Source: a virus. Taken from it: DNA of 64,000 bases. A model generated the notes under the pieces. The model did no database searches and was not told the DNA's origin. It saw only the letters and a program-made list of their open reading frames with translations. The stretch covers positions 1 through 64,000 of the IMG/VR virus record IMGVR_UViG_3300045988_105168; one strand, given 5' to 3'. Numbering within the stretch: position 1 is the first letter of the stretch; each line of letters starts with the position of its first letter. Below are positions 23,970 through 39,729 of this stretch, piece after piece. The position numbers and the translations under genes were made by a program.

Positions 23970-24587
23970 TTATAAATTATCAGAATATTTTAATACTTCA
24001 ACCTCTAAAAAACATTCTGGAGTATCCCCAAAACCATATATATAGTTGTAGAATTTAAAAGATTTATTTACTTCATTACGGACATACATCCCAAAATAAT
24101 CTCCTTCTTTAACATCTACTATTGCTTCACATTGTAAAGTTATCCAATTTAACTCCGACAAAATAGATTTTGCAATAGGCGTCCCTATATTAGTAGTAGA
24201 ACCATTCTTACCAATACCTAAAAACAACCAGTCATTAGCAGACCAAGCATCAATCTGACATATAACTTTCGCTCTTACTCGTACTTTTTCAATGCCAGCG
24301 CCAATTTTTATCCAGTACCCGTCTCTAGTTAAACGAGAACCATATTGTTGCCAAGTAGTCATACTACCAAAGACCGTCCATTGCCCAATAGCCCCAGGCC
24401 AATCTAGCGGCTCAGAATTATTTGATTTGTAAATCTTTATATAATCTTTACAATTATTAGTTTTAGTATTTAATCCAGTAAGCGAAGTATTTATATTATT
24501 TAAAACAGTATTAAGTGGTGTACGATTATATACCACATTTGAACTATCCCAATAATAAGGGCTGTTAAGTTTAATAGATGTAGCCAT
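23970..24587 (-). CDS. receptor-binding/fibre-tip-like paralog B4
   Basis: N-terminus MATSIKLNSPYYWDSS is shared with the three upstream paralogs. GGAGGTG SD favours ATG 24587; the track gives 24602. Confidence 0.5.
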   Translation of the reverse strand: MATSIKLNSPYYWDSSNVVYNRTPLNTVLNNINTSLTGLNTKTNNCKDYIKIYKSNNSEPLDWPGAIGQWTVFGSMTTWQQYGSRLTRDGYWIKIGAGIEKVRVRAKVICQIDAWSANDWLFLGIGKNGSTTNIGTPIAKSILSELNWITLQCEAIVDVKEGDYFGMYVRNEVNKSFKFYNYIYGFGDTPECFLEVEVLKYSDNL

Positions 24588-25242
24588 ATTTAGCACCTCC
24601 ATTAAACATATTAGTAATTAAGTTTTTTAACGACCTAATTACCCCCCCCCAATTCTTACGTCGATATACTTTTATCCAAGAACCATTTCCTATATAATCG
24701 CTATCTGTACATACAATTCTAATCGACATTACATTTGATTGATTTTGATTAACCAAATACGTATTACAATGTACATCAACGTAATTTCCGCCAGTAGTTG
24801 TAGTTCCTCCTTGACTATCAAAATACAACCAATCTTGATTAAAATATACTAAAGTACCGATTGTATAAAATAATGGCGTTCCCATACTCCATCCGTTCGT
24901 AAACGCCAAACAAGCAGAGTGTGTAGTAAGAACCCAAGAAGATGGAGATGATGACCATACATATCTATGACGCCCAGAATATCCAGAGCCTTTATCATTA
25001 AGTTGTAGATAATGTCCTCTGGATGTACCAGCCGTGCTATATTCTGCCACTACAATATCATACACATAACCATCTCTTTTTATATCGAGACCACTTACTT
25101 TTAATTCTTTTACATTACCATTTGCAACAGCCTCTCCTACCAATTCGCCAGTACTAAGAATATTGCTTAGTTGTTTCCTGTTATGTGAGATAGAAGAGCT
25201 ATCCCAAAATTTACTATCATTTAATTTTAAACTATTTGCCAT
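24571..25242 (-). CDS. receptor-binding/fibre-tip-like paralog B3 (poly-G at the 3' end)
   Basis: MANSLKLNDSKFWDSS N-terminus. The reading frame after ...RRKNWGG depends on the G9 tract. Confidence 0.5.
   Translation of the reverse strand: MANSLKLNDSKFWDSSSISHNRKQLSNILSTGELVGEAVANGNVKELKVSGLDIKRDGYVYDIVVAEYSTAGTSRGHYLQLNDKGSGYSGRHRYVWSSSPSSWVLTTHSACLAFTNGWSMGTPLFYTIGTLVYFNQDWLYFDSQGGTTTTGGNYVDVHCNTYLVNQNQSNVMSIRIVCTDSDYIGNGSWIKVYRRKNWGGVIRSLKNLITNMFNGGAKYGYIY
24642..24650 (-). repeat. homopolymer tract G9 (C9 on the plus strand)
   Basis: Counted directly: ACCCCCCCCCA. Confidence 0.9.
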
Positions 25243-25254
25243 AATATTTATGAG

Positions 25255-25719
25255 CTACTTTATTCTTATTGCTTGAATATGAGATTTTACACTAACAGTT
25301 TTATTTCTAGGCCATAAATTTAGATATACTCTAGTAGAACTATTTGAACTTTGTATACCGATAACCGTAGTATTTACCCAACCTTGGTCGTCATATCTAC
25401 TATCGGCTAACGATATTGTTATATTCTCTAATGCGGTATAAGAACTTAGATTTTGGTCTTCATAACGCCAATGTCCAATTACTAGCCATACACCAGCTGG
25501 TATTATTATCGAACAAATATCGTTACTTTGACTTTGTTTGGCGGTATTTGTAACTTCAGCACCGCTCGATATAACAGTTCCTATAGCGGCCACTGTATTG
25601 TTAACTGTTGTCACAGTATTTTTCATTGTATTTAAATAATTTGATAACAACTCTCTGTTATGTGTAATACCTTGTGTATCAATAAAAATATTATTTAATA
25701 GTTTTACACTTTTACTCAT
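25255..25719 (-). CDS. receptor-binding/fibre-tip-like paralog B2
   Basis: MSKSVKLLNNIFIDTQGITHNRELLS N-terminus; no SD. Confidence 0.5.
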   Translation of the reverse strand: MSKSVKLLNNIFIDTQGITHNRELLSNYLNTMKNTVTTVNNTVAAIGTVISSGAEVTNTAKQSQSNDICSIIIPAGVWLVIGHWRYEDQNLSSYTALENITISLADSRYDDQGWVNTTVIGIQSSNSSTRVYLNLWPRNKTVSVKSHIQAIRIK

Positions 25720-25736
25720 TTTGTTTCTATGCTAGA

Positions 25737-26306
25737 TTAAATTGTTTCTGTGTCTATAGATATAATATTCAACATCGTTCTACCACCTCTAAACATATAT
25801 GTTCGAGCTACACTAGCGCCAACTCTTAAATAAACATATTGCCCAGCGGCCAAATACACATTAATTGCAGGTATAACAGTAGAAACCATCCCTGATTGTG
25901 CACCAGAGTCTATTATAAATAGTACGGCACCATCACTTCTCATTACGTGAATTTGAAAATTTTCACCAGCCATATCGGAGTTGATAGCTCCAGATACAAT
26001 ATAATGGCCACTTTTAGATACTGCTATACCTCCGCCAGCACCATAAAAATTTGCAGTTGTTCTTCTATCCAATATTAAATTTAAAGTTGGATAATGTGTA
26101 TATGCACCATTTATAGCTACATTAGTATCAGCATAGAAACAAGCCAAACCAACGCCTTTATTAGCTAAAAATGTGTTTTGTTTATTTATACAATCAGATA
26201 ATGATGTGCTCTGATTGTTTAAAAAAGTAGACAATAATGTTCTATTATATGTAATCCCAGATGCATCCCAATAATTATTATTGGTTAGTTTAAGCGATTT
26301 AGACAA
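25737..26306 (-). CDS. receptor-binding/fibre-tip-like paralog B1 (TTG start)
   Basis: MSKSLKLTNNNYWDASGITYNRTLLS. The TTG start directly abuts the stop of a 5-codon SD-driven mini-ORF. Confidence 0.5.
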   Translation of the reverse strand: MSKSLKLTNNNYWDASGITYNRTLLSTFLNNQSTSLSDCINKQNTFLANKGVGLACFYADTNVAINGAYTHYPTLNLILDRRTTANFYGAGGGIAVSKSGHYIVSGAINSDMAGENFQIHVMRSDGAVLFIIDSGAQSGMVSTVIPAINVYLAAGQYVYLRVGASVARTYMFRGGRTMLNIISIDTETI

Positions 26307-26382
26307 CTAAACCACCCCTAGCATTTAACCTCCTTTGCAGAAGGTTTTGTTGAGTAAGAGTAGCAACTATATTGTGTAGCTG

Positions 26383-26391
26383 CCCCCCCCC
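26383..26391 (-). repeat. homopolymer tract G9
   Basis: Counted directly; minus-strand context GTTGAGGGGGGGGGCAGC. Confidence 0.9.
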
Positions 26392-26427
26392 TCAACTTGA
26401 TTTTTTATAGGAGATTGGACACTAAAC

Positions 26428-26472
26428 TTAAAGCCTAGATGCCCCCCCCCCTAACGAACATTTTTTAAACAT
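26428..26472 (-). promoter_or_regulatory. SD-driven leader mini-ORF containing poly-G (MFKKCSLGGGASRL)
   Basis: AGGAGG-8 nt-ATG. The tract lies inside the mini-ORF and the stop position changes with tract length. Confidence 0.4.
26442..26451 (-). repeat. homopolymer tract G10
   Basis: Counted directly; minus-strand context TTAGGGGGGGGGGCAT. Confidence 0.9.
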
Positions 26473-26485
26473 AATAATTTCCTCC

Positions 26486-26836
26486 TTACCAAGTATCAAC
26501 AACCGTATAATTAAGTTGTGATACATTACCTAAGTTTAAGTCGCTAATTTTCTTATCGACATTGAAGTTGGTACCGTGTTTAACTGATACCCAAGCATTA
26601 CTTGTTTTTCCGTTCTTGGTGCATAACTCAACAGAGTCTCCAACTGAAAGTTGTTCACCAGTTTTATTTAAGACACCAGAAACGATTTTTTCTGTATCGG
26701 GTGGTAAATAAACATCTACGCTCCCATTACTATTTACTGTTTTTACAACAGCAGACACGAACTTCGTAATTCCTTTTTTACTCATTCTTACATCTACGAT
26801 GTCTTCAATGACACCTTTAAATTCTTTAGTGTCCAT
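26486..26836 (-). CDS. small conserved fibre-cluster protein (paralog of 39372..39728)
   Basis: Shares VIEDIVD...LSVGDSVELCTKNG...SNAWVSVKHG with the 118-aa protein. Confidence 0.5.
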   Translation of the reverse strand: MDTKEFKGVIEDIVDVRMSKKGITKFVSAVVKTVNSNGSVDVYLPPDTEKIVSGVLNKTGEQLSVGDSVELCTKNGKTSNAWVSVKHGTNFNVDKKISDLNLGNVSQLNYTVVDTW

Positions 26837-26850
26837 ATTATCTCTCCTAA

Positions 26851-27078
26851 TTAATCTTCAAACTTAACTGTGTTTTCTTGGAATTTTCTAAGCATTGCTT
26901 CAAAATCGTTTCCTGGAGCACCTGCTTCCATATTTAAATTACGAGCCTTCTTTGCATCTCTACATTCTTTACAACGAATAGGTTGAGCAAATCCTTTTTC
27001 CTCGTAAAATCTTTGTTCTCCAACAGTAAAGTCAAACTCTTTACCACAGTCTTTACATACTAATTTAATATTTTCCAT
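26851..27078 (-). CDS. zinc-ribbon protein
   Basis: CKDCGKEFDFTVGEQRFYEEKGF..PIRCKECR. Confidence 0.5.
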   Translation of the reverse strand: MENIKLVCKDCGKEFDFTVGEQRFYEEKGFAQPIRCKECRDAKKARNLNMEAGAPGNDFEAMLRKFQENTVKFED

Positions 27079-27303
27079 TTACTTATTTTTCCTTCCTTTT
27101 TTCTTAGTACCTTGATTTTGTTCTATTTCTAAACGTTCTCTTTCAGCACGTTCTTGTTGCGCCTGTTGTACTTGTGCCAGCGCTTCTTGATACAAACCTT
27201 CTCTTAATGCATTTACATTTAATGCTTTTTCTTCTAAAGCATTTAATATAACGTCCATATCATCAGAACTAACTGCTAATGTAATCATAATTTTGTTACC
27301 CAT
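27079..27303 (-). CDS. hypothetical protein (74 aa)
   Basis: ORF track. Confidence 0.5.
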   Translation of the reverse strand: MGNKIMITLAVSSDDMDVILNALEEKALNVNALREGLYQEALAQVQQAQQERAERERLEIEQNQGTKKKGRKNK

Positions 27304-27311
27304 AATTACAC

Positions 27312-27848
27312 CTACTTAATAGATATACTTTTGTTTTCTACGATTTGAGCACCAGGGATTACTTCTGTTGCAAGAACGTCTTTTAACCCTTTTTTAACCA
27401 AAGACACTTTTGTTTCAACTTTCTTACAAGTTTCGTTATATTCTGGATGTGCCTCTAAGAATTTAAGAACGGCCTCTTCATTAGTAATATCAACAGAAGA
27501 CGACTTTCTAGTTCCTAAACGATAATCTTTTAATTCTTTTTTATCAATATTATTAGCCAACATTAACGCTTTTAAGAATTCATTTAGTCTTTCAACTCTA
27601 TTCTCATAATATTTGATATTGTCTTCAATTTCTTTTTTACGAGCTTTTAACGCATCGGCTTGTGCTTCAGTCTTCTTTATATATCCACAAATACCATTTA
27701 GTTTATCATCAAATTTTTCTTCTAATGCATCTAAATCATCACTTGTAAAGAATACCTCTCCTGTTTCTTCATCGGCATAAAAACCGTTTTCAATAACATT
27801 AAAAATCGCCTCAGTTAAACCCCAAGAAGTTAAATCTTTTATATCCAT
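27312..27848 (-). CDS. Gp157-like coiled-coil protein (recombination/replication module)
   Basis: Size, coiled-coil character and position upstream of the nuclease/ATPase genes. Weak family recognition only. Confidence 0.35.
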   Translation of the reverse strand: MDIKDLTSWGLTEAIFNVIENGFYADEETGEVFFTSDDLDALEEKFDDKLNGICGYIKKTEAQADALKARKKEIEDNIKYYENRVERLNEFLKALMLANNIDKKELKDYRLGTRKSSSVDITNEEAVLKFLEAHPEYNETCKKVETKVSLVKKGLKDVLATEVIPGAQIVENKSISIK

Positions 27849-27849
27849 A

Positions 27850-28077
27850 TTAAGCCTCCCTTGTTTTCAATATATACTTTTTAAATGATGTCTTCTCTCC
27901 ATATCGGTTCGTACGAGTTTGCCATTCTTCTTCAAATTCGTAGCCATCGATATGTTTTAAATTATATATAATAGCACTAAGTCTAGTGATACCATACTCT
28001 ACAAAACTCTCCCAAGATGTAATATGTCCGTAATCAACAAGATGTCGCAATATTCTTTCTTTTTGAGTCATCTTCAT
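27850..28077 (-). CDS. winged-helix DNA-binding protein
   Basis: ILRHLVDYGHITSWESFVEYGITRLSAIIYNLK HTH-like pattern. Confidence 0.4.
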   Translation of the reverse strand: MKMTQKERILRHLVDYGHITSWESFVEYGITRLSAIIYNLKHIDGYEFEEEWQTRTNRYGEKTSFKKYILKTREA

Positions 28078-28079
28078 AA

Positions 28080-28280
28080 TTACGCCTCCTTAGGTTTACG
28101 ATAAGTTCCTTTAGAGCTATCCCATAAAACATTAGGATAATATTTTCTATCGAAGCAAGCAATTTTACCTTCTAATTGTCTTATCTTCCATTCATTATTC
28201 TCTTCCTTTGCTTTCTCTAAAGCATCCATAAGAGCTTTCTTTTTCATTACGCGTCTATACGCAACAGTATTTTCAAACAT
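28080..28280 (-). CDS. hypothetical protein (66 aa)
   Basis: ORF track; AAGGAGA SD. Confidence 0.5.
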   Translation of the reverse strand: MFENTVAYRRVMKKKALMDALEKAKEENNEWKIRQLEGKIACFDRKYYPNVLWDSSKGTYRKPKEA

Positions 28281-28308
28281 AATTTATTTTCTCCTTTTTT
28301 ACCATTTC

Positions 28309-28337
28309 TTGACAAATTTGCAAAAAAGTTGTATAAT
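28309..28337 (+). promoter_or_regulatory. perfect consensus promoter TTGACA-17-TATAAT, antisense to the gene block
   Basis: TTGACA 28309-28314, a 17-nt spacer, TATAAT 28332-28337. It points into the 3' end of the minus-strand nuclease gene. Confidence 0.45.
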
Positions 28338-28351
28338 CTTAAACCGACCCA

Positions 28352-29173
28352 TTAAAATGGGCATTCGTCTAAAGATTGCGCCCTTTTGTGCTCAAAGAGC
28401 ATCTCTTTTGCCTCTTTGTATAAATCTTTAGTCTTATAAATCTCATAAGTAGAATTGTTCTCATTTATCCATATAATGAAGTGCTCGTTGCTTAGCTTTA
28501 AGCCAGTCTTCTTTTCAAAGATATACTGGTAACCATTAAGTTGCAAACTATAATGAATATAATTACAATCGTCCAAATGTGATAAGCAACCCGTCATTTT
28601 CTGTCCTTTATATGGTTTAAACTTAATCTCTTTATTTGATTTATAATCTACGATAATTAGAGATTGTAATTTTATGGAATAACATAAAAAATCAATACTT
28701 CCACAAATCTCTAAATCTTCGTCGCCGACAACAAGTTCCAAACCAATAGGTATTAATCTGTCTTTATACTTATTATAGAACTCTGTCGATATTTTGGTGA
28801 GCTGAGGCCATAATGGTTCTAGCACATCAGTACCAAATTGCTCTATTATTTTATCTTTAGGGTATTCATACTTCTCGCCTTTCCACATATATTCGTTAAA
28901 GGCGTGTATATGCGTCCCTTTTACCTTTGATAATTCATTAGTAAAAGCCCACATATCGAGTACCTCCTGTACTGGAATACCCATTTTACGCGCTGTAAAT
29001 GGAGCAATTTTTTCTGCATCAAATGGTTGAGCGTGAGAATGAATAAGCGCAGTCATCGATGTTTTCGCTTGTTTGCGTTCTCCATTTTCATCCAACCACC
29101 AATATATATGAGGTTCTTCCTCAAAATGAAACATATCAAATACTTTTAAACGCGACTTAATATCTTCTATCAT
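28352..29173 (-). CDS. PD-(D/E)XK (RecB/Cas4-like) nuclease
   Basis: GSIDFLCY...IIVDYKSNK D...(D/E)xK arrangement; C-terminal tail LDECPF. Confidence 0.6.
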   Translation of the reverse strand: MIEDIKSRLKVFDMFHFEEEPHIYWWLDENGERKQAKTSMTALIHSHAQPFDAEKIAPFTARKMGIPVQEVLDMWAFTNELSKVKGTHIHAFNEYMWKGEKYEYPKDKIIEQFGTDVLEPLWPQLTKISTEFYNKYKDRLIPIGLELVVGDEDLEICGSIDFLCYSIKLQSLIIVDYKSNKEIKFKPYKGQKMTGCLSHLDDCNYIHYSLQLNGYQYIFEKKTGLKLSNEHFIIWINENNSTYEIYKTKDLYKEAKEMLFEHKRAQSLDECPF

Positions 29174-31104
29174 AATGGACTTACCTCCTTCGACACTACG
29201 TTATGATTGTTAGGGTCGTAAGTTGGTATTGGGTATTGAGATAAATCTCTTTTGTCCCATCCATATCTAAACCAAACTTCCTCAGGTTTTTGATAAAATC
29301 TATAAGAAGGATAATCGAAATATAGATTAACTAAAGGTAATACACCAGTAATACGATTTTTTAACACTTCTACACAAGAGTCGTATTCTACAGGTTCTTT
29401 TCCTTTAATAAAATCTCCTCGTTGATTTGTTTCACCCTCTTTTTCACGGTCGGTATATCTATGTACACTAAACACCATATGTGCTAGGTTAACAATATTA
29501 CCACTACCTGCAATGTCTTCTTTAGTAACTCTTATTTCTCCTGTTTTACGAGGATGAGCTACTAAAAACACCAAGACATTGTATTTTTTTGCAAAGAATA
29601 TAAGTTTATTTACAAATTCTTTTTCTGCTTGTAAACGACCCTCTTCGCTACATTCTAGGTCAACCATCATTAAATTATCTATTAGGAATACTTTTGTTCC
29701 ACATTTACGAGCAAGTTCTTCCATCTTGTTTAATAATGCTGACGCCGTAGTGTTATAATCATCATCATACACTAATACTTTCCCACTGTACCAATTTTGC
29801 ATAATCTTACGTTGTTCTGAGTCAAACACACGAACGTGCCCATCTCTCATTGTTATATGGTCTCTACCAATCATATTAGTTTCAACCCAATTTCTTAGAA
29901 TAGGAGCGGGTAATTCGCCACTAAATACAAATACTTCATAGCCTTGTTGTAATGCTTGACATATAGCAACTTGATTTACGAATACAGATTTACCTTCACC
30001 ACTTTTACCTGTAATAATATTAAGCGTTCCAAAAGTTAGTTTATATATTTTGTCATCAAGTTCTTTAATACCTGTATACAGTCCTTCTGTATGCTCAATA
30101 TCAAAATCTTCAGCAGACGATAAATCTAATACTTTTTCAACTGGTACTTCTAAAGGTTTATTTATATATTCTAAAACTCTGTCTTTACCTATAAAGAATA
30201 AAACCTCATTAATATCTTTTACTTGCACACCATTAGGCGTTACATCTGTTGGTTGTGTTTCTACATAATAAGTTCTCCAAGTCCCTAAACGATAAATAAT
30301 ATCATTACGAGCTTTTACTCCAGGTTCGTCAGCATCAAACCATAAAATAATTTTATGAAATTGTTCTAACCAATCCCAATTATATTGAACCCATTGTGCA
30401 TTACTACAACCATTTGGTATAGAGACAACATTTGTATATCCCGCCTCAATAACTGATAAACAATCAATTTCTCCCTCAGTAATAACTAAAGGTTTTGTTG
30501 GGTCTACTCTATTCATATTAAATAGTAGTGGCGAAAAATCTGCCTCTAATTGAGACCAACATTTTGATTTGTCTACACCCTTTTGATATTTCTTTCCTAA
30601 ACGATATTTTACAGTCATTAATACATCGTTACTATCATAATAATGAAAAGCAACGTTCCCATATTTATCACTTTGTATATCGGCATAATCCATAGTTTTT
30701 ATGCTAATACCTCTGACTTGTAAATATTGTTCTACATTTGTTCTATCAGAATGTTCTCTACGTGGATATTTATAAGAGGAGGCAGTTTGCACTCCCCTTT
30801 GACTAAAATTGTAATCCATATCCACTTGTTTAAATAGTTTTTCTACAGCCTCTAAATAAGTAAGCCCTTGCTCTAAGTATAAGTCGATAATACCAAAGTT
30901 TCGACCACAACTAAAGCAATGAAAACAATTTGTTTTATCATTCCAAATGAACGACGGCGTTTTATCTCTATGCCAAGGACAAGAGCAACTTTTGTCTTTT
31001 TCATTATAAGAACCTTCTAAACCGAAGTGTCTAACTATCTCGTCGATAGCCTGACCATCATATTTGGCTTTCGCCGCATCAATCTTCTCGACTGGAATTA
31101 ACAT
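29170..31104 (-). CDS. bifunctional primase-helicase
   Basis: CHC2 zinc finger CPWHRDKTPSF...CFHCFSCG, TOPRIM ITEGEIDC/FDADEPG, Walker A GKSGEGKS, Walker B FLIDNLMM. Confidence 0.85.
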   Translation of the reverse strand: MLIPVEKIDAAKAKYDGQAIDEIVRHFGLEGSYNEKDKSCSCPWHRDKTPSFIWNDKTNCFHCFSCGRNFGIIDLYLEQGLTYLEAVEKLFKQVDMDYNFSQRGVQTASSYKYPRREHSDRTNVEQYLQVRGISIKTMDYADIQSDKYGNVAFHYYDSNDVLMTVKYRLGKKYQKGVDKSKCWSQLEADFSPLLFNMNRVDPTKPLVITEGEIDCLSVIEAGYTNVVSIPNGCSNAQWVQYNWDWLEQFHKIILWFDADEPGVKARNDIIYRLGTWRTYYVETQPTDVTPNGVQVKDINEVLFFIGKDRVLEYINKPLEVPVEKVLDLSSAEDFDIEHTEGLYTGIKELDDKIYKLTFGTLNIITGKSGEGKSVFVNQVAICQALQQGYEVFVFSGELPAPILRNWVETNMIGRDHITMRDGHVRVFDSEQRKIMQNWYSGKVLVYDDDYNTTASALLNKMEELARKCGTKVFLIDNLMMVDLECSEEGRLQAEKEFVNKLIFFAKKYNVLVFLVAHPRKTGEIRVTKEDIAGSGNIVNLAHMVFSVHRYTDREKEGETNQRGDFIKGKEPVEYDSCVEVLKNRITGVLPLVNLYFDYPSYRFYQKPEEVWFRYGWDKRDLSQYPIPTYDPNNHNVVSKEVSPL

Positions 31105-31147
31105 ACTCTTGCCACCTTTCTAAAATTATTTATTTGTTATATTAATC

Positions 31148-31693
31148 TTAGAATGGGCATTCATCTGCCGCCGTAGGTGCTGCTACTGGAGCTGCTTCTA
31201 CAACTGGTGTTACAGGTTGAACTGGAGTAACTGGCGCTACTGGAGCTGCTTGAGCAACTGGTGTAGCAGGAGCAACTTTTGGTTCTTCTGCAACTTGAGG
31301 AGCCTTATCTAAGTTTCTAGTAGGATTAGTTTCTGTTTGTGCATTTGGGTCATATAACTCAAATTCAAAAACTGTAATCTTTTCATTCTTTGGATAAGCA
31401 ATACAACCATTGTTAGTGTCCCAATATGGTTCAGTACTCATATCGGCAACTACATTAGTGATTGTGTCCCCTGGCTTAATATTTTTTAATTGGTGATAAG
31501 CGTGACCAATAAATCTAACAAATGAACGATAGTCTGCAATATAACCATTTTTAGCAACACCGTTGTTTACTTGTACTTGGTCATAAGAACTATCTTCTTT
31601 TACTTTACGGCTTGTAGAGAATTTTACTTCTGCTACGCCATCTTTATCATTGATTTCCCAAACTTTTACTCTGTCTGTAATTGTTACTCTCAT
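31148..31693 (-). CDS. ssb: single-stranded DNA-binding protein
   Basis: OB-like N-terminal domain, a Pro/Ala/Val-rich linker and an acidic-aromatic tip ADECPF. Confidence 0.65.
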   Translation of the reverse strand: MRVTITDRVKVWEINDKDGVAEVKFSTSRKVKEDSSYDQVQVNNGVAKNGYIADYRSFVRFIGHAYHQLKNIKPGDTITNVVADMSTEPYWDTNNGCIAYPKNEKITVFEFELYDPNAQTETNPTRNLDKAPQVAEEPKVAPATPVAQAAPVAPVTPVQPVTPVVEAAPVAAPTAADECPF

Positions 31694-32577
31694 TATTTAC
31701 TTCCTCCTCTACTTACTTTTAATGAGTTTAGAGCCTCTAAAGATTTCTTTAATAAGGCTTCGTTTGTACAATTCTTAGGATTTACCTCTCCTAAAATATC
31801 AATAGTAGCAGCCTTAACTTCTGGGTCTTTACTTCCACCAAGTTCTGTTGCTAATTTAATAATGTCGTTTTGTGCTCCGCCAATATTAAACGCATAATCA
31901 TCACCTGCATTAGCCCAATCGTATAAAGCTTCTCCATCTTTTTCAGTTAATACTTCATAACGTCCTTCAAAAATATGAGTATTATCTTTTGTTGCCTCAG
32001 CAATATGTGTATCTTGCATAATATTGAATGTTGCTGTGTAATTGTATTCAACACCATCACGTTGTTTAAATCCTAAACCAACCTTCTTAGGTGTTTGTTT
32101 ACCATTCTTTTCTTCTAACACATATTCATCTTTTCCTCTAACTGTTGCAATAATATGGATTGGCGCTTGTAAAATCTTTTCCATAAATGCATCGTGACGA
32201 GGAGTCACTTTTGACCAGTTAGTCCAACTGTTTCCTGGCATCTTATCGTGAATATCTACACAATAATTCCATTCGTGTGAAATACTATCAATAATTAATA
32301 CCTTGAACCCTGAGTCTACTGCTTCATTGATTGCTTCAATGTACTTTTCTGGAGTGAATGGTTCTGTTAGTTGCATATCACAAAAATCAAATTCGTTAGC
32401 ATAATAACGAATACGACCAGCTTCAGTGTCTATTGCAGCAATTCCGCTTCCTCCACTTTTTCTTGCTAGACCCGTCGCTAAACGTAATGCGCTGTAGGTT
32501 TTACCACTTCCACTTGAACCTCCTAACAATATCTTCGTCCAGATTTTTTCTTTTTTGGCTTTTTGAAATCCTGCCAT
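31693..32577 (-). CDS. AAA/RecA-like ATPase (Sak4-type?)
   Basis: Walker A GGSSGSGKT, Walker B VLIIDSI. Confidence 0.65.
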   Translation of the reverse strand: MAGFQKAKKEKIWTKILLGGSSGSGKTYSALRLATGLARKSGGSGIAAIDTEAGRIRYYANEFDFCDMQLTEPFTPEKYIEAINEAVDSGFKVLIIDSISHEWNYCVDIHDKMPGNSWTNWSKVTPRHDAFMEKILQAPIHIIATVRGKDEYVLEEKNGKQTPKKVGLGFKQRDGVEYNYTATFNIMQDTHIAEATKDNTHIFEGRYEVLTEKDGEALYDWANAGDDYAFNIGGAQNDIIKLATELGGSKDPEVKAATIDILGEVNPKNCTNEALLKKSLEALNSLKVSRGGSK

Positions 32578-32649
32578 ACTTTCCCTCCTTCTGTTCTATA
32601 GAATTGGCCTCTCATCTTCTACCCTGTGCTCAATTCTAAATAAATTATA

Positions 32650-33708
32650 CTATATTTTATCATAAATGTCAATAATTTTTTTTAAAATCTTGACAAACCT
32701 TTTTATTTCGTGTAATGTATTCTGTTTACCTAAAGAAACACGTATTGTCTTCCTTGCATCTTCTTCGCTATATCCATAAGCCAATAGTATTTTAGACGGC
32801 TCATCACTTGATGCATTACACGCACTACCTGCTGATACGGCAATACCCTCTTTATCTAATATGCCAACAGCAGTTTGAGCGTCTAGCTCATTAAAAGTTA
32901 TATTCATAATGTTGTTATGATATGACATTTTTACGCCACTAAAATATAATTTAGAATAAATATAATTCATTAGTTTGCTATATTTCTCTTCTATCTCATA
33001 TCTGTTCTTATAAGCAAGTTCTAACGCTTTAGCCATTCCAACTATACCAGCAACATTTTCTGTTCCACCACGCAATTCGTGTTCTTGATGTCCATATATT
33101 AATGGTTTAAAGTTTTCTTGAAGGTCTCTACGAATAAACAATACACCTACACCTTTTGGAGCGCCAAATTTATGGCCACTAAAAGAAGCTGTCGCATACT
33201 TATATACTGGCTCATCTAAAGGTCTCATTACATAACTATCAGGGAACAAAGGTATCGCCGTTCTTTGTTCGTGTAGATTAATATATTCTTTACCAGCTGC
33301 CTGTGTTAAATCAACGTGACAACAATCAAAGCAGTCGTGATATATGTAATGTTTACCACCGACCTCACTATCAACCAATGGATAAGACATAATTTGAGCT
33401 TTACGAACATTGTTATTAGCCATTATCATTGAGTCGTGAGAGAATGGCGAACATTCACATTTAAAGTTTTTAGAAACCCACGAATTTGACTCGCTAGCAC
33501 CGCTTGTAAAGAATATTTCATCTTCGTAACACCCTAATAATTCAGCAATCTTTTCCCTCGCTTTATCAATAGCTAAACGGGCTTTTCTGCCCTCTTGATG
33601 AATACTGCTAGGATTTCCATATTCTGTCGTTAAATAAGGCATCATCGCTTTTAAAACACGCTTATCAATAGGTGTCGTAGCGGCGTTATCCAAATAAATT
33701 CTCTTCAC
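32650..33708 (-). CDS. class V aminotransferase / cysteine desulfurase (NifS/IscS-like)
   Basis: [32 protein letters not shown] (PLP lysine), SAGSAC active-site Cys loop; GTG start. Confidence 0.8.
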
Positions 33709-33739
33709 TCTATCACCTACCTCTCTCTATGTTAATTAA

Positions 33740-33768
33740 ATACTAACATATAATAGTGACTTTGTCAA
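33740..33768 (-). promoter_or_regulatory. promoter TTGACA-17-TAGTAT for the replication operon
   Basis: Minus-strand TTGACA (33768-33763) and TAGTAT (33745-33740), immediately after the lysis-module terminator. Confidence 0.5.
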
Positions 33769-33773
33769 GATAG

Positions 33774-33803
33774 AAAAAAATGGGCTACATCGCTGTAGCC
33801 CAT
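33774..33803 (-). terminator. intrinsic terminator ending the late (structural/lysis) operon
   Basis: Minus strand ATGGGCTACA-GCGA-TGTAGCCCAT followed by T7. Confidence 0.75.
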
Positions 33804-33809
33804 TATTCA

Positions 33810-34895
33810 TTATCTGATTGTTAAAACTTGTCCTGGTTTAATTAAATTAGGGTTATTACCAATTACAAATTTATTCTTAGCATATAATTCTTGCCAAGAC
33901 ATACCATATTTAGCAGCAATTCCTGATAAAGTATCACCAGATTTTACTGTATATGTAACTGTTTCTCCTGCTAATCTAATAGAGCTTTCATTCATCCATC
34001 CTAAATCACCAGTTGTGTTATAAGGATGAGGTGCACCAGCTGCATATCTTGTAATATAAGTAGTTTTATTACTTACATTTCCAGATGCATTGGCAGCAGT
34101 TGAACTCTTATATAATGCTCCATTAATAATAACCTTTGTTCCAATAGCAAATTTTTGAGTTGGTGTTGGTTTTGGTTCTTCATATTTAGTGATAGAAGCT
34201 TCGTCCATCCAACCTAAATCTCCAGTAGTATTATATGGATGTGCAGCCCCAGATACCTTACGAGTAATGTTTGTAATCTTGTTACTTACACTACCTGCTG
34301 GAGATGATGCATTTGAGCTCTTATATAAAGCTCCGTTAATTACAACTTTATCTCCAATATTAAATTTACCACTTGGACTTGGTGTTGGCGCTGGAGTTGG
34401 TTCATCAGGTACTGCTGGATTATAAATAAATCCTCTAAATGTGTATCCTGAACCTAATCCCCATCTTCCATTAGAATTATATCTGTGAGAGTTCCAGAAA
34501 GCACTTCCACCATATCCAGACTCAGAAGTGTATACGTGGTTGTTATCATATACTGCTTCAACAACAGCTACGTGTCCAGCACCATCGTTACCGCTTAATG
34601 TAGCACCTTTTTGCCAACACATAATAGCTCCAACTTTAGGTGTTTGACCAATTTTTAAACCAGCCTCTTTTGCTCTTTCAATAAAGTTTTCAGCGTTACA
34701 GCATAAAGTTTTATACTTCATAGACCCAATTATTTCATTAAATCTACCACAAGCATATCCTACACAGTTTGCTAGAACATTACATCCTGGGTCAGTTGGA
34801 TTACCATTGATACACCAAGAATATCCGCCATTATTGCCATTGTTATAAAACTTATTACCAGCACTAGGTTTACTTGTTCTCATTGTGAAAGCCAT
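33810..34895 (-). CDS. endolysin: CHAP-like amidase/peptidase, two SH3b-like repeats, LysM
   Basis: CVGYACGRF...GHVAVVE. Two repeats KF.IG.KV.INGALYKSS...HPYNTTGDLGWM. C-terminal [17 protein letters not shown]...PGQVLTI. ATG 34895 sits behind GGAGG. Confidence 0.8.
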   Translation of the reverse strand: MAFTMRTSKPSAGNKFYNNGNNGGYSWCINGNPTDPGCNVLANCVGYACGRFNEIIGSMKYKTLCCNAENFIERAKEAGLKIGQTPKVGAIMCWQKGATLSGNDGAGHVAVVEAVYDNNHVYTSESGYGGSAFWNSHRYNSNGRWGLGSGYTFRGFIYNPAVPDEPTPAPTPSPSGKFNIGDKVVINGALYKSSNASSPAGSVSNKITNITRKVSGAAHPYNTTGDLGWMDEASITKYEEPKPTPTQKFAIGTKVIINGALYKSSTAANASGNVSNKTTYITRYAAGAPHPYNTTGDLGWMNESSIRLAGETVTYTVKSGDTLSGIAAKYGMSWQELYAKNKFVIGNNPNLIKPGQVLTIR

Positions 34896-34896
34896 A

Positions 34897-35040
34897 TTAT
34901 TCAACCTCCTCTACGTTTTCAATTATTGTGTCTTCTGTACAAAGTACATCAAACCCATCCTCGTTGAAAGTTGTTTGGATTTCTAAATCCTCAGGCATTT
35001 CAACTACTTCTTCAATAATTTCTTCTTTTTTCTTTGCCAT
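34897..35040 (-). CDS. small acidic protein (47 aa, below the track cutoff)
   Basis: AGGAGGAATGAAAA SD region plus ATG. MAKKKEEIIEEVVEMPEDLEIQ... Confidence 0.35.
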   Translation of the reverse strand: MAKKKEEIIEEVVEMPEDLEIQTTFNEDGFDVLCTEDTIIENVEEVE

Positions 35041-35053
35041 TTTTCATTCCTCC

Positions 35054-35398
35054 TTATTTTTCATTATTTGAGTTTACAGGTACATTTACCGTTAATAAGT
35101 CTTTAATCTTCATTAAGACTTTACCTGCATAAACTAAGTTCGCAGCTTTAATTAATAATGTTGCTCCTGTTAATGTAGTAACCATTTCACCATTAATTTC
35201 AGCCACTTCCATTGGGTAAATATAAGTTGACGCAAAAGCTAAAGCTAACCCAATTAAAAAGAAGGCAGCTTTGCTAATGCCTCCAACTAATTTTTCTTTG
35301 TTGTATTCTTGTTTAAAATCGGCTAACTTTTTACCCATAATAATGTTAGCCACCATTAAACATATTAAAGATAATACAACTGCAATATACTCTGGCAT
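35054..35398 (-). CDS. holin
   Basis: 114 aa with about 3 hydrophobic helices, directly upstream of the endolysin. Confidence 0.65.
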   Translation of the reverse strand: MPEYIAVVLSLICLMVANIIMGKKLADFKQEYNKEKLVGGISKAAFFLIGLALAFASTYIYPMEVAEINGEMVTTLTGATLLIKAANLVYAGKVLMKIKDLLTVNVPVNSNNEK

Positions 35399-35410
35399 TT
35401 AAATTCCTCC

Positions 35411-36490
35411 TTAAATAACCTTAAATTTTTCCTTTTTTACTTCTACGAACGAACCACCATTTTGGCTTGTGTACATTTTGTATCTAGTAAATCCACCACC
35501 ATTTTGAGATACGTAGATATATTTGTCAGATACAACCGTAACTGAATTGCTTCCATTTACCGCAGTTGTTCCACTACCGCTCCAATGTTTATTACCAGCC
35601 CAATCATAACAATATGCAAATATACTTGTCGTAGCAACATCCCCAGGTACAAAACCTAAAGCTTCAAATGTTCCAAAGGTATAGGTAACCGCTGTACTAT
35701 CGGTGTCTATACATTGTATTTCAGTACCATTTTTATACAAACGAATTCTATATCCGCCTATTGCTGTAGAGCCAGCTGATGCCGCCGTCCAAGTTGCTTT
35801 AATATTTGCCTTTGGTATTGGTTCACTTTGGTCATAGGTTAATACTGGTGCACCTGGGTTACCTGGAGCGTAGAAGGCCGTCGTAAAACTTGTAACGGCT
35901 GTATACGCCCTACCAGCACTATTAGCCGCGTTTCCTCGTAAATAATATGTTCTATTCGGTGTTAACCCAGTAATAGTACCTGCTTTACTACTAATACCCG
36001 CTACTACAGTACCAAAGTTTGTTAATGATGCATCGATATAACCATCGGATGGAGCTTCACCATTATTGTTAGACACACTAAACGAAGCGTAAACCGACGT
36101 ATCTTTAACACTACTATAACTAATTGCACTCAGTGTTGGTTTAAAAATATACGCAGACATTGTAAAATTACCACCGTGGTTATCTGTACGATTATAAAAT
36201 ACATATCCTGTAAAATATACAGTTATGGTTTTTGAACTTGCTCCGTTACCTATCCATACACTACCACTTGTACTACCAACTTTTGCTGGGAATGCATAAG
36301 TATTCCAAGCAACCGTACCTGGATTGTATACTGTCGTACCGTTAATCTTAACATTTACATTATAAATAGTATAGTAATTGCTACTACTATTACCAGTAGA
36401 ATATAATGCCCATTTCGCATACCCACCATCTTGCCAAACATCTAGTTGTAAATATCTCCCATCATAAGTATTACTATAAAAAGTAGCCAT
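35411..36490 (-). CDS. tail fibre / FN3-like repeat protein
   Basis: Ser/Thr/Gly/Asn-rich beta-type sequence with FN3-like GLTPNRTYYLRG; lies in the fibre cluster. Confidence 0.45.
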   Translation of the reverse strand: MATFYSNTYDGRYLQLDVWQDGGYAKWALYSTGNSSSNYYTIYNVNVKINGTTVYNPGTVAWNTYAFPAKVGSTSGSVWIGNGASSKTITVYFTGYVFYNRTDNHGGNFTMSAYIFKPTLSAISYSSVKDTSVYASFSVSNNNGEAPSDGYIDASLTNFGTVVAGISSKAGTITGLTPNRTYYLRGNAANSAGRAYTAVTSFTTAFYAPGNPGAPVLTYDQSEPIPKANIKATWTAASAGSTAIGGYRIRLYKNGTEIQCIDTDSTAVTYTFGTFEALGFVPGDVATTSIFAYCYDWAGNKHWSGSGTTAVNGSNSVTVVSDKYIYVSQNGGGFTRYKMYTSQNGGSFVEVKKEKFKVI

Positions 36491-36501
36491 CTACTCACCT
36501 C

Positions 36502-36900
36502 CTAACTTGCAGTATTTATCCATATAATTGTCTTTCCGCTTTGTGCTGATGGTTGTGTTGAACTAACTTTGATAATTGTATTCCCATCGCTCATTACACC
36601 ATAAGCATTTACGGCTTCTTTTACTCTTGCTGGCGTCATTACTTTATTTGTGATTGCACCAGCAGTTGCTTCGGCAGTTGTTGCAGCTGCTAATGATAAT
36701 GTTCCATCACTAAGATTTAAACCGTTACCAGTAGTAACTTTGATATGACCAAAAGCCGATGTTGTTGCTACACCAAAATCAGTTGTTGTTGACGCGTGAT
36801 TTTTTGTAGCCTTATTTGTATAAAGGTCTGTGAAATTTTCATTTAAAATATTTCTAAACACAGCACCTGATATACCATTATTTAAGGTTTGTTGTGCCAT
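36502..36900 (-). CDS. tail fibre protein (N-terminal adaptor-like)
   Basis: MAQQTLNNGISGAVFRNILNENFTDLY is a typical fibre N-terminus. Confidence 0.45.
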   Translation of the reverse strand: MAQQTLNNGISGAVFRNILNENFTDLYTNKATKNHASTTTDFGVATTSAFGHIKVTTGNGLNLSDGTLSLAAATTAEATAGAITNKVMTPARVKEAVNAYGVMSDGNTIIKVSSTQPSAQSGKTIIWINTAS

Positions 36901-36926
36901 ATAATCTCCTCCTTTTTAATTTAACT

Positions 36927-37445
36927 TTATGCGGTTCTTTTCCAAACAAATACATCAACTGTTGCTATATTATGCGAATGTGCGCCTCCGCCACCCGTAT
37001 TTTGATTGGTGGCTGTAGCCGCTCTTGTAGATACGTTATCATAAGGCGCACCAGTACTTGACCTTGACCAACCTAATTCAATACATCCAGTACTCCCATA
37101 AGTGGTTGAAACAACTATTGTATCCCCTGAACTACCGCTGTCATTATGCCTTAAACCGTGATGCTTGTGTGAATTTTGGGTATGGGTATGACTTGGCATT
37201 TGAGATACTGTTAATGTGTGTCCTTGAGTTCCCCATCCAACATAGTCTGTTTTACCAATACTAGATTGAGCCGCATATAAATATCCACCATATAATTGCT
37301 CCCAAGTACCACCAAAGTAGGTTGATGGATTTGTTTTATTAATTGACAAATAAATTGAACCAACTGGATATAAATCTTTTATATCAAGTGGTGTTATTGA
37401 TACATTTTTATTATTGTTATATATTCTTCCATATGGTTTTGCCAT
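36927..37445 (-). CDS. phage tail-collar-domain fibre protein A4
   Basis: GSIYLS...YFGGTW, QMPSHTH, GGGGAHSHN...VFVWKRTA. Confidence 0.65.
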   Translation of the reverse strand: MAKPYGRIYNNNKNVSITPLDIKDLYPVGSIYLSINKTNPSTYFGGTWEQLYGGYLYAAQSSIGKTDYVGWGTQGHTLTVSQMPSHTHTQNSHKHHGLRHNDSGSSGDTIVVSTTYGSTGCIELGWSRSSTGAPYDNVSTRAATATNQNTGGGGAHSHNIATVDVFVWKRTA

Positions 37446-37466
37446 AAATTTCGGTTTATCGTGATA

Positions 37467-38016
37467 TTAAGCCGTACGTCTCCATACATAATTACTTGTG
37501 TTATAGACATCTATTTTAAAAGCCTTTAAACCAATACTATCTAATGTTCGCCCTGTTGCACTCCAAGATTGTAAATACACTGTAACTGGAGTAGATGTTA
37601 CAATTACATCAACGACCTGTCCACTATATTTGTTACCATCACTACAATGAACTGATTGTCTAGTATAAGCACCTCGTGAAGAAAGTTGTAATGTAAAACC
37701 TGTGCCACTACCATAACCAGAAGCAGAACCAATAAGTAACCATCTACCTTGTGGTAATGTAATAGACGCATTACTTATCCAAGTCGCTCTTGCTTCATCA
37801 GTTAACACCAACCCATTTACTTCCAATGTCTCATCTATTTGAGACCATTCTCCTCCAAATAAAGTTCTAGGGTTGACATTATTAGTACTGATATATATAG
37901 AGCCTGTAGGCTGTATACTATCACTTAATAACCTGCCCCCCCCCCTCACAATAGATACTCTTGTCAGAGATTAGGACAGGCAAATCTTTTACTTTTACTT
38001 TTCCATAATTCGCCAT
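37467..38016 (-). CDS. collar-related fibre paralog A3, interrupted by a frameshift at poly-G (in-frame at G9)
   Basis: A 31-codon N-terminal ORF (ATG 38016, MANYGKVKVKDLPVLISDKSIYCEGGG...) and the body ORF 37467..37949 are 1 nt out of frame across the G10 tract. Confidence 0.6.
37936..37945 (-). repeat. homopolymer tract G10
   Basis: Counted directly; minus-strand context TGTGAGGGGGGGGGGCAGG. Confidence 0.9.
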
Positions 38017-38046
38017 AAAAATTTTATAGTTAATTAATCTTTACTT

Positions 38047-38625
38047 TTAAGCTGTACGTTTCCAAATGTAAACTACTAAGTACGGCATTAAATTGTTATG
38101 ATTACCACCACCACCAGTACTATTTGTAGTTCCATCGTGTTGGTGGGCTGATTTATTATTACCCGCATATGTCAACCACTCATTTAATCTATAATTTGTA
38201 GACCACCCCATACCACTATTGCCTATGAAGTCATTATTACTAGCGGCGCCTGCGCCAGCAGAATAATAAGCTATTTCGTGTCTGTGATGGCCACCAACAT
38301 TTGTAAGAAAATAATGTGTATGACTGGGCATTTCTGAAGTTGTTATTTTATGTGTAACCTCACCACCCATATTACCAGCATAAGCTACAAAGCTCCCTGC
38401 GTTAACAGTACCACACCAGTTGTCATTATTTGCCACAATAGTTCCTTCACCAACCAAAGTACGACCCTGAGCTATTTTTATCCAAGTACCACCAAAGTAA
38501 GTTGATGGATTTGTAGAATTAACACTAATATATACAGACCCGATAGGCCATACATCATAAGTATCAATCCCCATTATAGAAACGTTCTTTCCTTTTTGAT
38601 AAAGTCGACCATAAGGTTTTGCCAT
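38047..38625 (-). CDS. phage tail-collar-domain fibre protein A2
   Basis: GSVYIS...YFGGTW, EMPSHTH, GGGGNHNNLMPYLVVYIWKRTA. Confidence 0.65.
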   Translation of the reverse strand: MAKPYGRLYQKGKNVSIMGIDTYDVWPIGSVYISVNSTNPSTYFGGTWIKIAQGRTLVGEGTIVANNDNWCGTVNAGSFVAYAGNMGGEVTHKITTSEMPSHTHYFLTNVGGHHRHEIAYYSAGAGAASNNDFIGNSGMGWSTNYRLNEWLTYAGNNKSAHQHDGTTNSTGGGGNHNNLMPYLVVYIWKRTA

Positions 38626-38654
38626 AATACTCGACGCTTCGGTTTATTATTTAT

Positions 38655-39217
38655 TTAAGCTGTTCTTTGCCATATATAAACCGCCATATAAGGCATTACG
38701 TTATTATGCCATCCTCCGCCACCTGTGTTTTGCATTGCAATACTGTTACTCCATCCTTTTGTATCCATACTGTAAAGGTAATCCCAGTTATTATAGCTTA
38801 ATGTAGCTAACGCATCTGAATTGTTGTTATAAGGATTATAACCATTACTATTCTTATTTAATGCTGTAACTTTATGGCAATGAGCTGGCATCTCACTTGT
38901 TGTTAGGTAATGATTATATTGGCCGCCCATTTCACCAGCCCAGAAACTATAATTATTATTATTAAGTGTTCCACACCAATTAGTGTTATTATCTGAAGGG
39001 TCTCCAACACCAACTAAGCATCTACCTTGACAAATCTGTGTCCAAGTGCCCCCAAATAAATCTTTAGGGTTTGTGGCGCTCATTGTTAAATAAATACTAC
39101 CGACAGGATAAACTAAATCAAACAGTTTATCGAGCGTCTTGCCCCCCCCTCATACAGTATTGAACTTGCATTTATAAGGACGGGACTATTTTTTACATAT
39201 GTTTTTCCTTTATTCAT
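38655..39217 (-). CDS. tail-collar-domain fibre protein A1, interrupted by a frameshift at poly-G (in-frame at G9)
   Basis: The N-terminal ORF from ATG 39217 (MNKGKTYVKNSPVLINASSILYEGG...) and the body frame (KTLDKLFDLVYPVGSIYLTMSATNP..., EMPAHCH, GGGGWHNNVMPYMAVYIWQRTA) differ by 1 nt across the G8 tract. Confidence 0.6.
39142..39149 (-). repeat. homopolymer tract G8
   Basis: Counted directly; minus-strand context TATGAGGGGGGGGCAAG. Confidence 0.9.
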
Positions 39218-39244
39218 AAGTTAAATCGTAAAGATTGTCATACC

Positions 39245-39276
39245 AAAAAGAGGTATACTAACTATAATATACCTCC
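39245..39276 (-). terminator. intrinsic terminator between the poly-G leader and fibre cassette A1
   Basis: Minus strand GAGGTATA-TTATAGTTAG-TATACCTC followed by TTTTT. The 5' arm overlaps an AGGAGG. Confidence 0.55.
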
Positions 39277-39307
39277 TTTCTCTCGAAAGTTAGAAGGCAC
39301 GACAATC

Positions 39308-39728: not shown

Positions 39729-39729
39729 G

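Follow-up and report, generated by a model that had tools for sequence, protein, structure and literature searches.

What is the purpose of a 179-nucleotide (nt) gap between two phage genes that holds a strong Shine-Dalgarno (SD) sequence, a start codon and two long runs of G? The gap (26307-26485, minus strand) lies in positions 1 to 64,000 of the IMG/VR virus record IMGVR_UViG_3300045988_105168; these 64,000 nt were analysed as a whole and are called the window below. It separates a gene for a 116-amino-acid (aa) protein, anchor B, from a cluster of four genes, B1 to B4, for candidate heads of a receptor-binding protein (RBP), and is referred to here as the leader of unit B. Judged from its sequence, the lengths of the G runs probably decide, by way of the reading frame, whether ribosomes reach and switch on these host-recognition genes. 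More specifically, we propose, with the chances about evenly balanced, that the leader is a phase-variable translational gate, in which poly-G tracts gate translational coupling ahead of an array of RBP-head cassettes.

Anatomy, conservation and length variation of the leader

All features described below lie on the minus strand. The gap consists of an SD sequence and an ATG, a 14-codon mini-open reading frame (mini-ORF) with a G10 tract, a G9 tract and a second, SD-led mini-ORF of five codons. The stop codon TAA of the 116-aa gene (26486-26488) is overlapped by the SD sequence AAGGAGG of the leader ORF (26481-26487), from which a spacer of 8 nt leads to the ATG. In its G10 early-stop state the leader mini-ORF (26428-26472; MFKKCSLGGGASRL followed by a stop) has the codons ATG TTT AAA AAA TGT TCG TTA GGG GGG GGG GCA TCT AGG CTT TAA. 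Tract 1 (G10, 26442-26451) is the putative first frame gate and tract 2 (G9, 26383-26391, context GTT GAG GGG GGG GGC) the putative second; the distance between them is exactly 50 nt. This arrangement of AGGAGG, ATG and G10 mini-ORF behind the 116-aa gene, as well as the second tract 50 nt further on, had been described in the initial annotation, and coordinates, frames, distance and context were confirmed on the minus strand. The proposed similarity of the tract-2 coding context to that of the collar genes was found too, since the context GAG-G(n) is shared with the collar-gene tracts, and a leader with tract 1 at G9 does pass through tract 2, as had been predicted, its translation being MFKKCSLGGGHLGFKFSVQSPIKNQVEGGGSYTI followed by a stop.

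The second mini-ORF (ATG CTA GGG GTG GTT TAG, 26307-26324) is preceded by AAGGAGG and a 4-nt spacer. It contains the SD sequence of B1 (GGGGTGG, 26312-26318), and its TAG directly abuts the TTG start of B1 (26304-26306). The layout of an SD-driven mini-ORF abutting B1, as given in the initial annotation, was thus exact, but the mini-ORF is not kept as an ORF in relatives: its ATG is missing in comparison contig L036, and only two codons are left in a related unit, unit 3. It is therefore regarded as accessory and not as part of the core. Because relatives have TAA in place of its TAG, the latter is a true stop. A reading of the in-frame TAG as a recoded sense codon (MLGVV-X-LSKS) was rejected on the evidence of this TAA and of the B proteins, which all begin at that Met. 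The leader peptide had no conserved sequence among orthologues, and its substitutions were mostly non-synonymous, which ruled out a conserved small protein. Likewise rejected was a sigma-70-like promoter at 26499..26471 (TTGATA-17-TATTAT), the -35 element of which is not conserved in relatives. A search of 24000-40000 with the Rfam 15 covariance models (E up to 1) gave no relevant match.

Orthologous leaders were drawn from IMG/VR, JGI, ENA and Logan assemblies. Every orthologous contig recovered from human-gut phages contained the leader unit (6 + 7 contigs in the initial scans and a total of more than 25), and the leader ATG was kept in every orthologue; the sequence AAGGAGG-8 nt-ATG was identical across 10 aligned orthologues. 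Pattern scans of IMG/VR for further leader copies returned just the two contigs already known, and a near-identity search among cultured phages gave no match. Compared with the nearest other lineage the leader was about 90% identical whereas the anchor gene was 80% identical; conservation of the leader is twice that of the neighbouring gene. Its divergence of about 10% can be set against 42% at the third and 8-11% at the first and second codon positions of the adjacent anchor gene; in constraint the non-coding leader thus equals the first and second positions.

The 13 overlapping G8 matches of the window represent six tracts of G8 to G10, all on the coding strand, and no other run of G or C of at least 7 was present in the window. 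Shuffled windows contained 0.22 G8 matches on average, and none out of 100 reached 13. Both tract positions of unit B carry uninterrupted G7-G11 in more than 15 orthologous contigs, and the lengths range from 7 to 11 among genomes with an identical 116-aa protein. Contigs with the same or a near-identical anchor protein, which make up the window lineage, had 7-10 residues in tract 1 and the combinations 10/9, 8/10, 9/9, 7/8, 8/9 and 10/11 for tracts 1 and 2; they also included one "locked" variant with interrupted tracts. The lengths observed for tract 2 were 8-11. Two contigs from the same metagenome, L001 and L005, differ by 2 substitutions over 12.3 kb, and all of their indels are located within three G tracts. 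The indels between L006 and L007 are likewise confined to G tracts; few A/T runs of at least 8 were on hand as controls for such length differences. The leader units are not a product of chance. The initial annotation had argued for function on the basis of the two copies, and had named lack of conservation in relatives, or invariant tract lengths together with B1 expression that does not follow them, as grounds for giving up the claim; conservation in more than 25 contigs with lengths of 7-11 supports it. Intergenic G runs of this kind are not assembly errors, which should serve as a warning for annotators.

Some assemblies end at the tracts. Four of 10 window-lineage contigs terminate at or within tract 1, and in several independent assemblies (L027, L054-L057, L002) there is a break right at tract 1 or 2 or no more than a few bases away, which fits either read heterogeneity or poor coverage at G runs. 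Interruptions of one G run or of both (GGGAGGGGA, GGAGTGGGG, GGGGGTGGG) characterise the "locked" leaders at L030:180-260, L035:840-900 and L053:3380-3470. One of them carries a compensatory change in hairpin H1 (see below), and L030 has a composite A9G8 run at tract 2. These leaders came from a search that was blind to all but read-through frames, so that the direction of locking is biased.

Predicted folding, reading frames and start regions

The sense RNA of the leader was predicted to fold at -62 kcal/mol (z -5.2; -5 to -6 against shuffles), compared with -29.6 kcal/mol (z -0.7) for the antisense RNA. The RNAalifold consensus of the orthologues comprised three hairpins, H1, H2 and H3, with 97.9% of cells paired versus 45-58% in slid controls and without systematic breakage. 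In H1 (26409-26451; about -22 kcal/mol, z -2.3 to -3.1) the Gs of tract 1 pair with UCUCCU, and the inner stem is formed by CAUCUAGGC and GUUUAGUG; both early stop codons of the leader sit within this hairpin. H2 (26349-26396; z = -6.0) has the order GUUGA/G tract/GCAGCUA, a loop with 3 variable nt and UAGUUGC/CUCUU/UCAAC, so that the Gs of tract 2 pair with CUCUU around the GCAGCUA/UAGUUGC stem. All of its cells were paired, and variation was limited to the loop and to GC/GU changes. H3 (26327-26346; AACCUUCU-GCAA-AGGAGGUU, -9.8 kcal/mol) is predicted to sequester the second AGGAGG. Two double compensatory changes were found in H1, one from C:G to A:U and one, in L035, from C:G to U:A.

Among the tracts of the window, the leader tracts alone lie in significant hairpins (z -2.3 to -6.3), whereas the values for the coding tracts were -1.4 to +1.2. 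Moreover, the leader architecture recurs with diverged sequence in unit A, which follows the paralogous 118-aa anchor gene, in unit 3, which lies between B2 and B3 of relatives, and in the L033/L034 type. H3 in particular is represented by AUAUCUCC-GAAA-GGAGGUAU in unit 3 and by AAUCUCCAA-UGGA-UUGGAGGUU in the L033 type. That paralogous units keep the hairpin architecture lends independent support to the predicted leader fold.

The stop codons are arranged in a regular manner relative to these hairpins. In every orthologue two of the tract-1 frames stop inside H1, 120-130 nt before B1, and the third reads on to tract 2. There, three outcomes are available: a stop in the loop of H2 (-60), a TAG overlapping the ATG of the second mini-ORF (-11), or a TAA 8 nt inside B1. 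The tract lengths thereby shift the predicted termination site of the leader by up to 130 nt. The same stop layout (H2 loop, ATGNTAG, +8 TAA) was found in all orthologues and in three diverged sequence families; unit 3 and the L033 type reach the same three end points despite their different sequence. All frames occur in nature. Among 14 contigs that were sampled without bias via the anchor gene, the tract-1 frames a, b and c were seen 5, 5 and 4 times, and when public assemblies were searched with a profile of the hypothetical read-through peptides, 22 predicted proteins were retrieved, in which all three tract-2 outcomes are represented. A fusion ORF of leader and B1 was rejected, since TAA and TAG close the frame of B1 and no combination of tract lengths yields one.

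At the start of B1 a further hairpin, H4 (26292-26317, -11.2 kcal/mol), is predicted, in which the SD sequence and spacer of B1 pair with its codons 2-5 and the TTG is placed in the loop. The predicted unpaired probability of this SD sequence (GGGGUGG) was 0.06-0.08. Over 56 ORFs of the window, the fold of the ribosome-binding site (RBS) region had a mean of -2.9 kcal/mol (sd 2.5), and the most stable ones belonged to B1 (-11.2) and, in second place, B4 (-10.5), precisely the pair of genes that follow an intergenic G tract. Every leader-preceded B gene has such a start hairpin (-7.4 to -16.8 kcal/mol), and the H4 spacer co-varies with synonymous codon choice (GGUUUAG/CUAAAUC, GCUCUUA/UAAGAGU, GACUUA/UAAGUC). 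The tract upstream of B4, the third of cluster B (G9, 24642-24650), is part of the 3' end of B3. A length of G9 (window, L051/L052) extends B3 by 23 codons to a stop 17 nt inside B4; with G8, as in L048, or G10, B3 stops 51 or 47 nt, respectively, before the ATG of B4.

No SD-like motif was detected within 20 nt upstream of B2 (25719), B3 (25242) and the collar genes (39217, 38625, 37445), whereas most other genes of the phage carry GGAGG. The arrays therefore appear to rely on ribosome relay or translational coupling. Changing the length of either tract from 8 to 11 shifted the energy of H1 or H2 by just 1-3 kcal/mol and left the predicted accessibility of the first and second SD sequences and of the start unchanged. 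An RBS accessibility that changes purely with tract length was rejected on this basis; the frame, and not length as such, is therefore the plausible signal.

Receptor-binding cassettes and related units

The window comes from a human-gut metagenomic phage of 105-117 kb and is identical to the ENA contig k119_272451 (ERZ27229688) over the region compared. Its genes from about 9 to 64 kb all lie on the minus strand. The phage encodes a DnaE-type polymerase, with Clostridioides phages as the best cultured matches (43% identity), and a CHAP+LysM endolysin, which points to a Gram-positive host. One anchor variant alone was found in 346 blocks of a public collection.

The anchor B gene (26486-26836) is a paralogue of a 118-aa gene (39372-39728), the two proteins being 50% identical. 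More distant relatives carry this domain of about 95 aa in fusion with C-terminal heads that vary in kind and in length (171-444 aa), Gp10_C "collar" heads among them. The 116-aa and 118-aa proteins thus represent the split-off N-terminal shoulder or anchor domain of an RBP. An AlphaFold2 model of a fused homologue (pLDDT 83.6) matched the RBPs of the lactococcal phages p2 and TP901-1 and of the Listeria phage PSA in Foldseek (E 2.7e-4 to 1e-3, probability 1.00, 119-124 columns at 3.5-4.5 A). The RBP is divided into an anchor gene (26486-26836, 39372-39728) and separate heads in this clade and forms one fused gene in relatives, as seen in a comparison with contigs L003, L004, L008 and L014-L025.

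Cluster B (23970-26306) comprises the head genes B1 (25737-26306), B2 (25255-25719), B3 (24571-25242) and B4 (23970-24587), each with a conserved N-terminal docking segment of about 25-40 aa. One head, which L004 has in fusion with the anchor, bears a B-type N-terminus (MSKSIKLKDNTF...) in L013; B1-B4 therefore represent alternative heads, each with a docking peptide. Relatives share a constant leader and the first 10 or so codons of B1, beyond which the cassette is swapped. By the modelled p2/TP901-1 RBP-like fold the B genes are predicted to be receptor-binding heads, and the term "fibre-like" used for the cluster in the initial annotation is better replaced by RBP heads with a docking peptide. 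Searches of Pfam and PHROGs with the anchor and B1-B4 returned nothing useful, and sequence searches of the Protein Data Bank with the anchor and B1 revealed no similarity. Homologues of B1 were limited to two clusters, which did not suffice for predicting its own structure. The anchor gene and cluster B (23970-26836) lie within the replication module, flanked by a zinc-ribbon gene and DnaE and at a great distance from the baseplate genes. Elsewhere in the window, a class-V aminotransferase-like gene (32650-33708; PF00266, E 4e-48), which could be an auxiliary metabolic gene, comes shortly after the endolysin terminator.

Unit A (39245-39365), behind the 118-aa anchor gene, is the paralogue of unit B. 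It includes an SD sequence (39357-39365), a leader ORF (MRNYMIRGGATHR followed by a stop; 39308-39349) with an ATG and 6 codons before the tract, a G9 tract (39322-39330) and a poly-G:C/U hairpin (39292-39328), so that the second copy in the same relative position, on which the initial annotation had drawn, is real. An additional, terminator-like hairpin of 11 bp with U5 (39245-39275) lies between this leader and the first collar gene. It carries an AGGAGG in its 5' arm and the stops of two read-through leader frames in its loop. This arrangement suggests a phase-variable attenuator, and unit A may thus add transcription termination. Ten of the unit A orthologues (n=16) are set to a read-through frame, the other 6 to early stop.

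Coding tracts lie about 23 codons from the start of two Gp10_C "collar" head genes (G8, 39142-39149; G10, 37936-37945). Both are OFF in the window, each would be ON at G9, and ON and OFF states are mixed among the orthologous tracts of relatives. The leader of unit 3 begins with MNK..., as the collar genes do. Two contigs record rearrangements at the tracts. L046 (2889-3290), compared with L037-L045, encodes the same anchor A protein but has lost everything between the leader tract of unit A and the last collar tract; its leader ATG now continues through a G run into a collar body (MRNYSIRGG|RLLSDIIYPVGSIY..., at G7 or G10). It follows that the G tracts are, in addition, microhomology sites for deletions. 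L032 (2501-2700, protein P0010) contains a hybrid leader: the sequence following the unit 3 tract is attached to tract 2 of unit B, with loss of B1 and B2, which indicates recombination between homologous leader units.

Proposed mechanism, rival explanations and known systems

In the proposed gate, ribosomes arriving from the anchor gene or bound at the strong SD sequence would translate the leader ORF and meet tract 1 after 7 codons. Replication slippage would set the length of this tract heritably and, with it, the frame. In two frames the ribosome would stop in H1, 120-130 nt before B1, whereas in the third it would continue to tract 2, the length of which would direct it to one of the three stops in the H2 loop, at the mini-ORF ATG or inside B1. 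Only far-travelling ribosomes would melt H3 and H4, the hairpins that cover the second SD sequence and the SD/TTG of B1. B1 would then be initiated by termination-reinitiation or at the exposed RBS, and the SD-less B2 and B3 would follow by coupling. We infer that B1 output is controlled by leader translation, and likewise which tract state is on: about 2/9 of the length combinations would be "on", and the window state, G10/G9, would be "off" or low. A broader version, held tentatively and at somewhat under an even chance, describes the leader as a serial two-gate "frame counter" in which homopolymer length is read by steering ribosomes to termination sites relative to hairpin-locked RBSs. Combined with unit A, unit 3 and the B3/B4 tract, it would make up a combinatorial, hierarchical programme, in which one gate per sub-operon chooses the heads that a widespread human-gut phage mounts on two split anchors; the read-out of the switch would be neither protein truncation nor promoter respacing.

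Several observations weigh against the translational gate. The open-frame pattern was non-significant per unit in dinucleotide shuffles, both from tract 2 to B1 (p ~0.17-0.18) and from tract 1 to tract 2 (p 0.6). Co-variation within the orthologues was weak (28 of 500 shuffles reached the observed score), because their sequences are too similar. The tract lengths represent assembly consensus and not within-population counts, and the relay mini-ORF is lost or shortened in some relatives. At 16 unit A loci the leader state did not correlate with that of the first collar gene (read-through, 6 ON and 4 OFF; early-stop, 2 ON and 4 OFF). The termination version considered for unit A is further weakened by the fact that the RNA polymerase of Firmicutes often outruns the ribosome. 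Finally, L046 and L032 demonstrate that leaders arise or vanish by simple deletions, and part of the anatomy may therefore be historical.

Other explanations of the locus were weighed against the same evidence. The leader could be a translation-independent structured rheostat, whose poly-G:C/U hairpins act in cis as RNA processing or stability elements (e.g., for RNase III) or as targets of a C/U-rich RNA or protein, with an effect graded by length. The G tracts do form one arm of long, conserved, sense-specific hairpins, and simple sequence repeats acting via hairpins of the 5'-untranslated region (5'-UTR) or via G-repeat:C/U pairing have precedents (PMC12721329, PMC8295292). We nevertheless consider this unlikely: lengths of 8-11 alter hairpin energy by so little that the predicted accessibility of the B1 RBS stays constant, and a rheostat leaves unexplained the invariant strong SD sequence and ATG 7 codons before tract 1, the stop codons in hairpin loops and the RBS hairpins at B1 and B4. 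Repeats in promoter spacers set promoter strength in Neisseria, Bordetella and the tpr genes of Treponema. Transcriptional control of this kind, with tract 2 as the spacer between TTGAGG and TATAGT (17-20 nt), or else a leader frame that steers Rho-dependent or intrinsic termination (polarity), is quite unlikely in our judgement, even though the flanking TTGA and TATAGT are conserved and the nucleotides between them variable. The stem and loop of H2 would fully account for this pattern, as the conserved TTGAGG-N17/18-TATAGT is made of the same bases that build the H2 stem; the promoter match belongs to a set of 88 hits, against a chance expectation of 77; the homologous unit 3 is without -35-like or -10-like hexamers; and the upstream anchor gene would need the same timing too. 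Termination could draw on the C-rich, G-poor stretch (CUCUUACUCAACAAAACCUUCU) after tract 2 and on the 11-bp hairpin with U5 of unit A, whose loop holds two read-through stops, but none of H1-H4 in unit B precedes a U run, by which an intrinsic-terminator attenuator is recognised.

It is also conceivable, though improbable, that the leaders are evolutionary relics, that is, orphaned 5' ends of phase-variable head genes that were produced by deletion or duplication between G tracts and maintained through recent spread and recombination, with no role of their own. The fusion of the unit A leader ATG to a collar body in L046, the junction of tract 2 and the unit 3 tract with loss of B1 and B2 in L032, the MNK... 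start of unit 3 and the GA-G(n)-CA context common to the tracts would all agree with such an origin. A relic would, however, hardly evolve about 4 times slower than the neighbouring synonymous sites, keep pairing through its stem substitutions, maintain uninterrupted runs of G8-G11 in most lineages or show the same layout in three positions with diverged sequence, and the hairpins are specific to the leader tracts. The least probable explanation, in our view very improbable, is recoding at the level of RNA or ribosome, where G runs and hairpins drive transcriptional slippage, frameshifting or a gene-60-like bypass of 50 nt and a fixed small read-through fraction sets stoichiometry. A stable hairpin does follow directly on the G9-G10 runs, and the two runs, with their GGG codons, are exactly 50 nt apart. 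The distance from slippery site to inner stem is 0-3 nt, however, and not 5-9; no stop stands directly after any take-off codon or next to a tract; in none of the frames does an ORF of more than 29 codons resume beyond either tract; and length polymorphism is demonstrably present at the DNA level. Programmed -1 frameshifting and gene-60-like bypass were rejected because the spacer, the stop and the resuming ORF that define them are lacking.

If the translational gate is correct, poly-G phase variation of phage host recognition extends beyond Campylobacter phages to an abundant human-gut lineage. It would also represent a new read-out: a leader ORF would gate coupling by its frame, through which repeat length is sensed, and two such gates would act in series. 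The model is compact and testable, and offers a design for synthetic stochastic switches. It bears on host-range bet-hedging in gut phages, which matters for phage-host dynamics and phage therapy.

Hypermutable poly-G tracts are reportedly present in the Campylobacter phages Fletchervirus and Firehammervirus, subpopulations of which are said to express different RBPs. The study of Sorensen et al. (2021, Cell Rep 35:109214) on Campylobacter phages appears in the reference lists of PMC12823448 and PMC10877375. With slippage-variable runs of G7-G11 in host-recognition loci, these phages are the closest kind to the present tracts, and the collar-gene coding tracts described here work as theirs do. 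The Campylobacter phage tracts, however, lie inside ORFs and act by truncation, whereas each genome here has two to three tracts that occupy a mini-ORF in non-coding, structured leaders; the host is of the Gram-positive type, and the nearest cultured relatives are Clostridioides phages. Contingency loci of phages were recently reported in T2 and T4 (PMC12633550). Our literature search revealed no earlier description of coupling gated by a leader ORF that is translated and contains a repeat, and none of Firmicutes-type gut phages that switch by poly-G tracts.

Leader repeats with a regulatory role are known from bacteria. The mRNA leader of H. pylori tlpB-hp0102 contains a variable G-repeat that is targeted by the C/U-rich loop of the small RNA RepG (PMC8295292). 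The likeness consists in a length-variable G run of a leader that pairs with C/U-rich RNA and in the post-transcriptional control of downstream genes, which is proposed here. The partner of tlpB is a small RNA acting in trans, and the effect is graded by length; here the C/U partner is in cis, in the same hairpin, the tract is translated and the predicted read-out is by length modulo 3. In H. influenzae hmw1A a repeat hairpin of the 5'-UTR is processed by RNase III (PMC12721329). There, too, the folded leader is regulatory, and its long 5'-UTR hairpin has the repeat tract as one arm and a complementary purine/pyrimidine stretch as the other. That system differs in its heptanucleotide repeats, RNase III cleavage and inverse length dependence, belongs to a bacterial adhesin gene and not to a phage, and has neither a leader ORF nor an RBS hairpin relay, unlike the present locus.

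The RBPs of p2, TP901-1 and PSA share the head fold and the modular design of anchor plus head with the products of this locus. Here, however, anchor and head are separate genes, several alternative heads stand behind each anchor, and there is no detectable sequence similarity. The relay itself has well-known counterparts in the ermC and cat leaders and in the coat-to-lysis/replicase relay of MS2, where the position of a ribosome on an upstream short ORF opens a hairpin over the next SD sequence or start. In ermC, cat and MS2 the input is a drug-stalled ribosome or ordinary upstream translation, whereas in the proposed gate it would be a heritable and reversible homopolymer frameshift, used twice in series.

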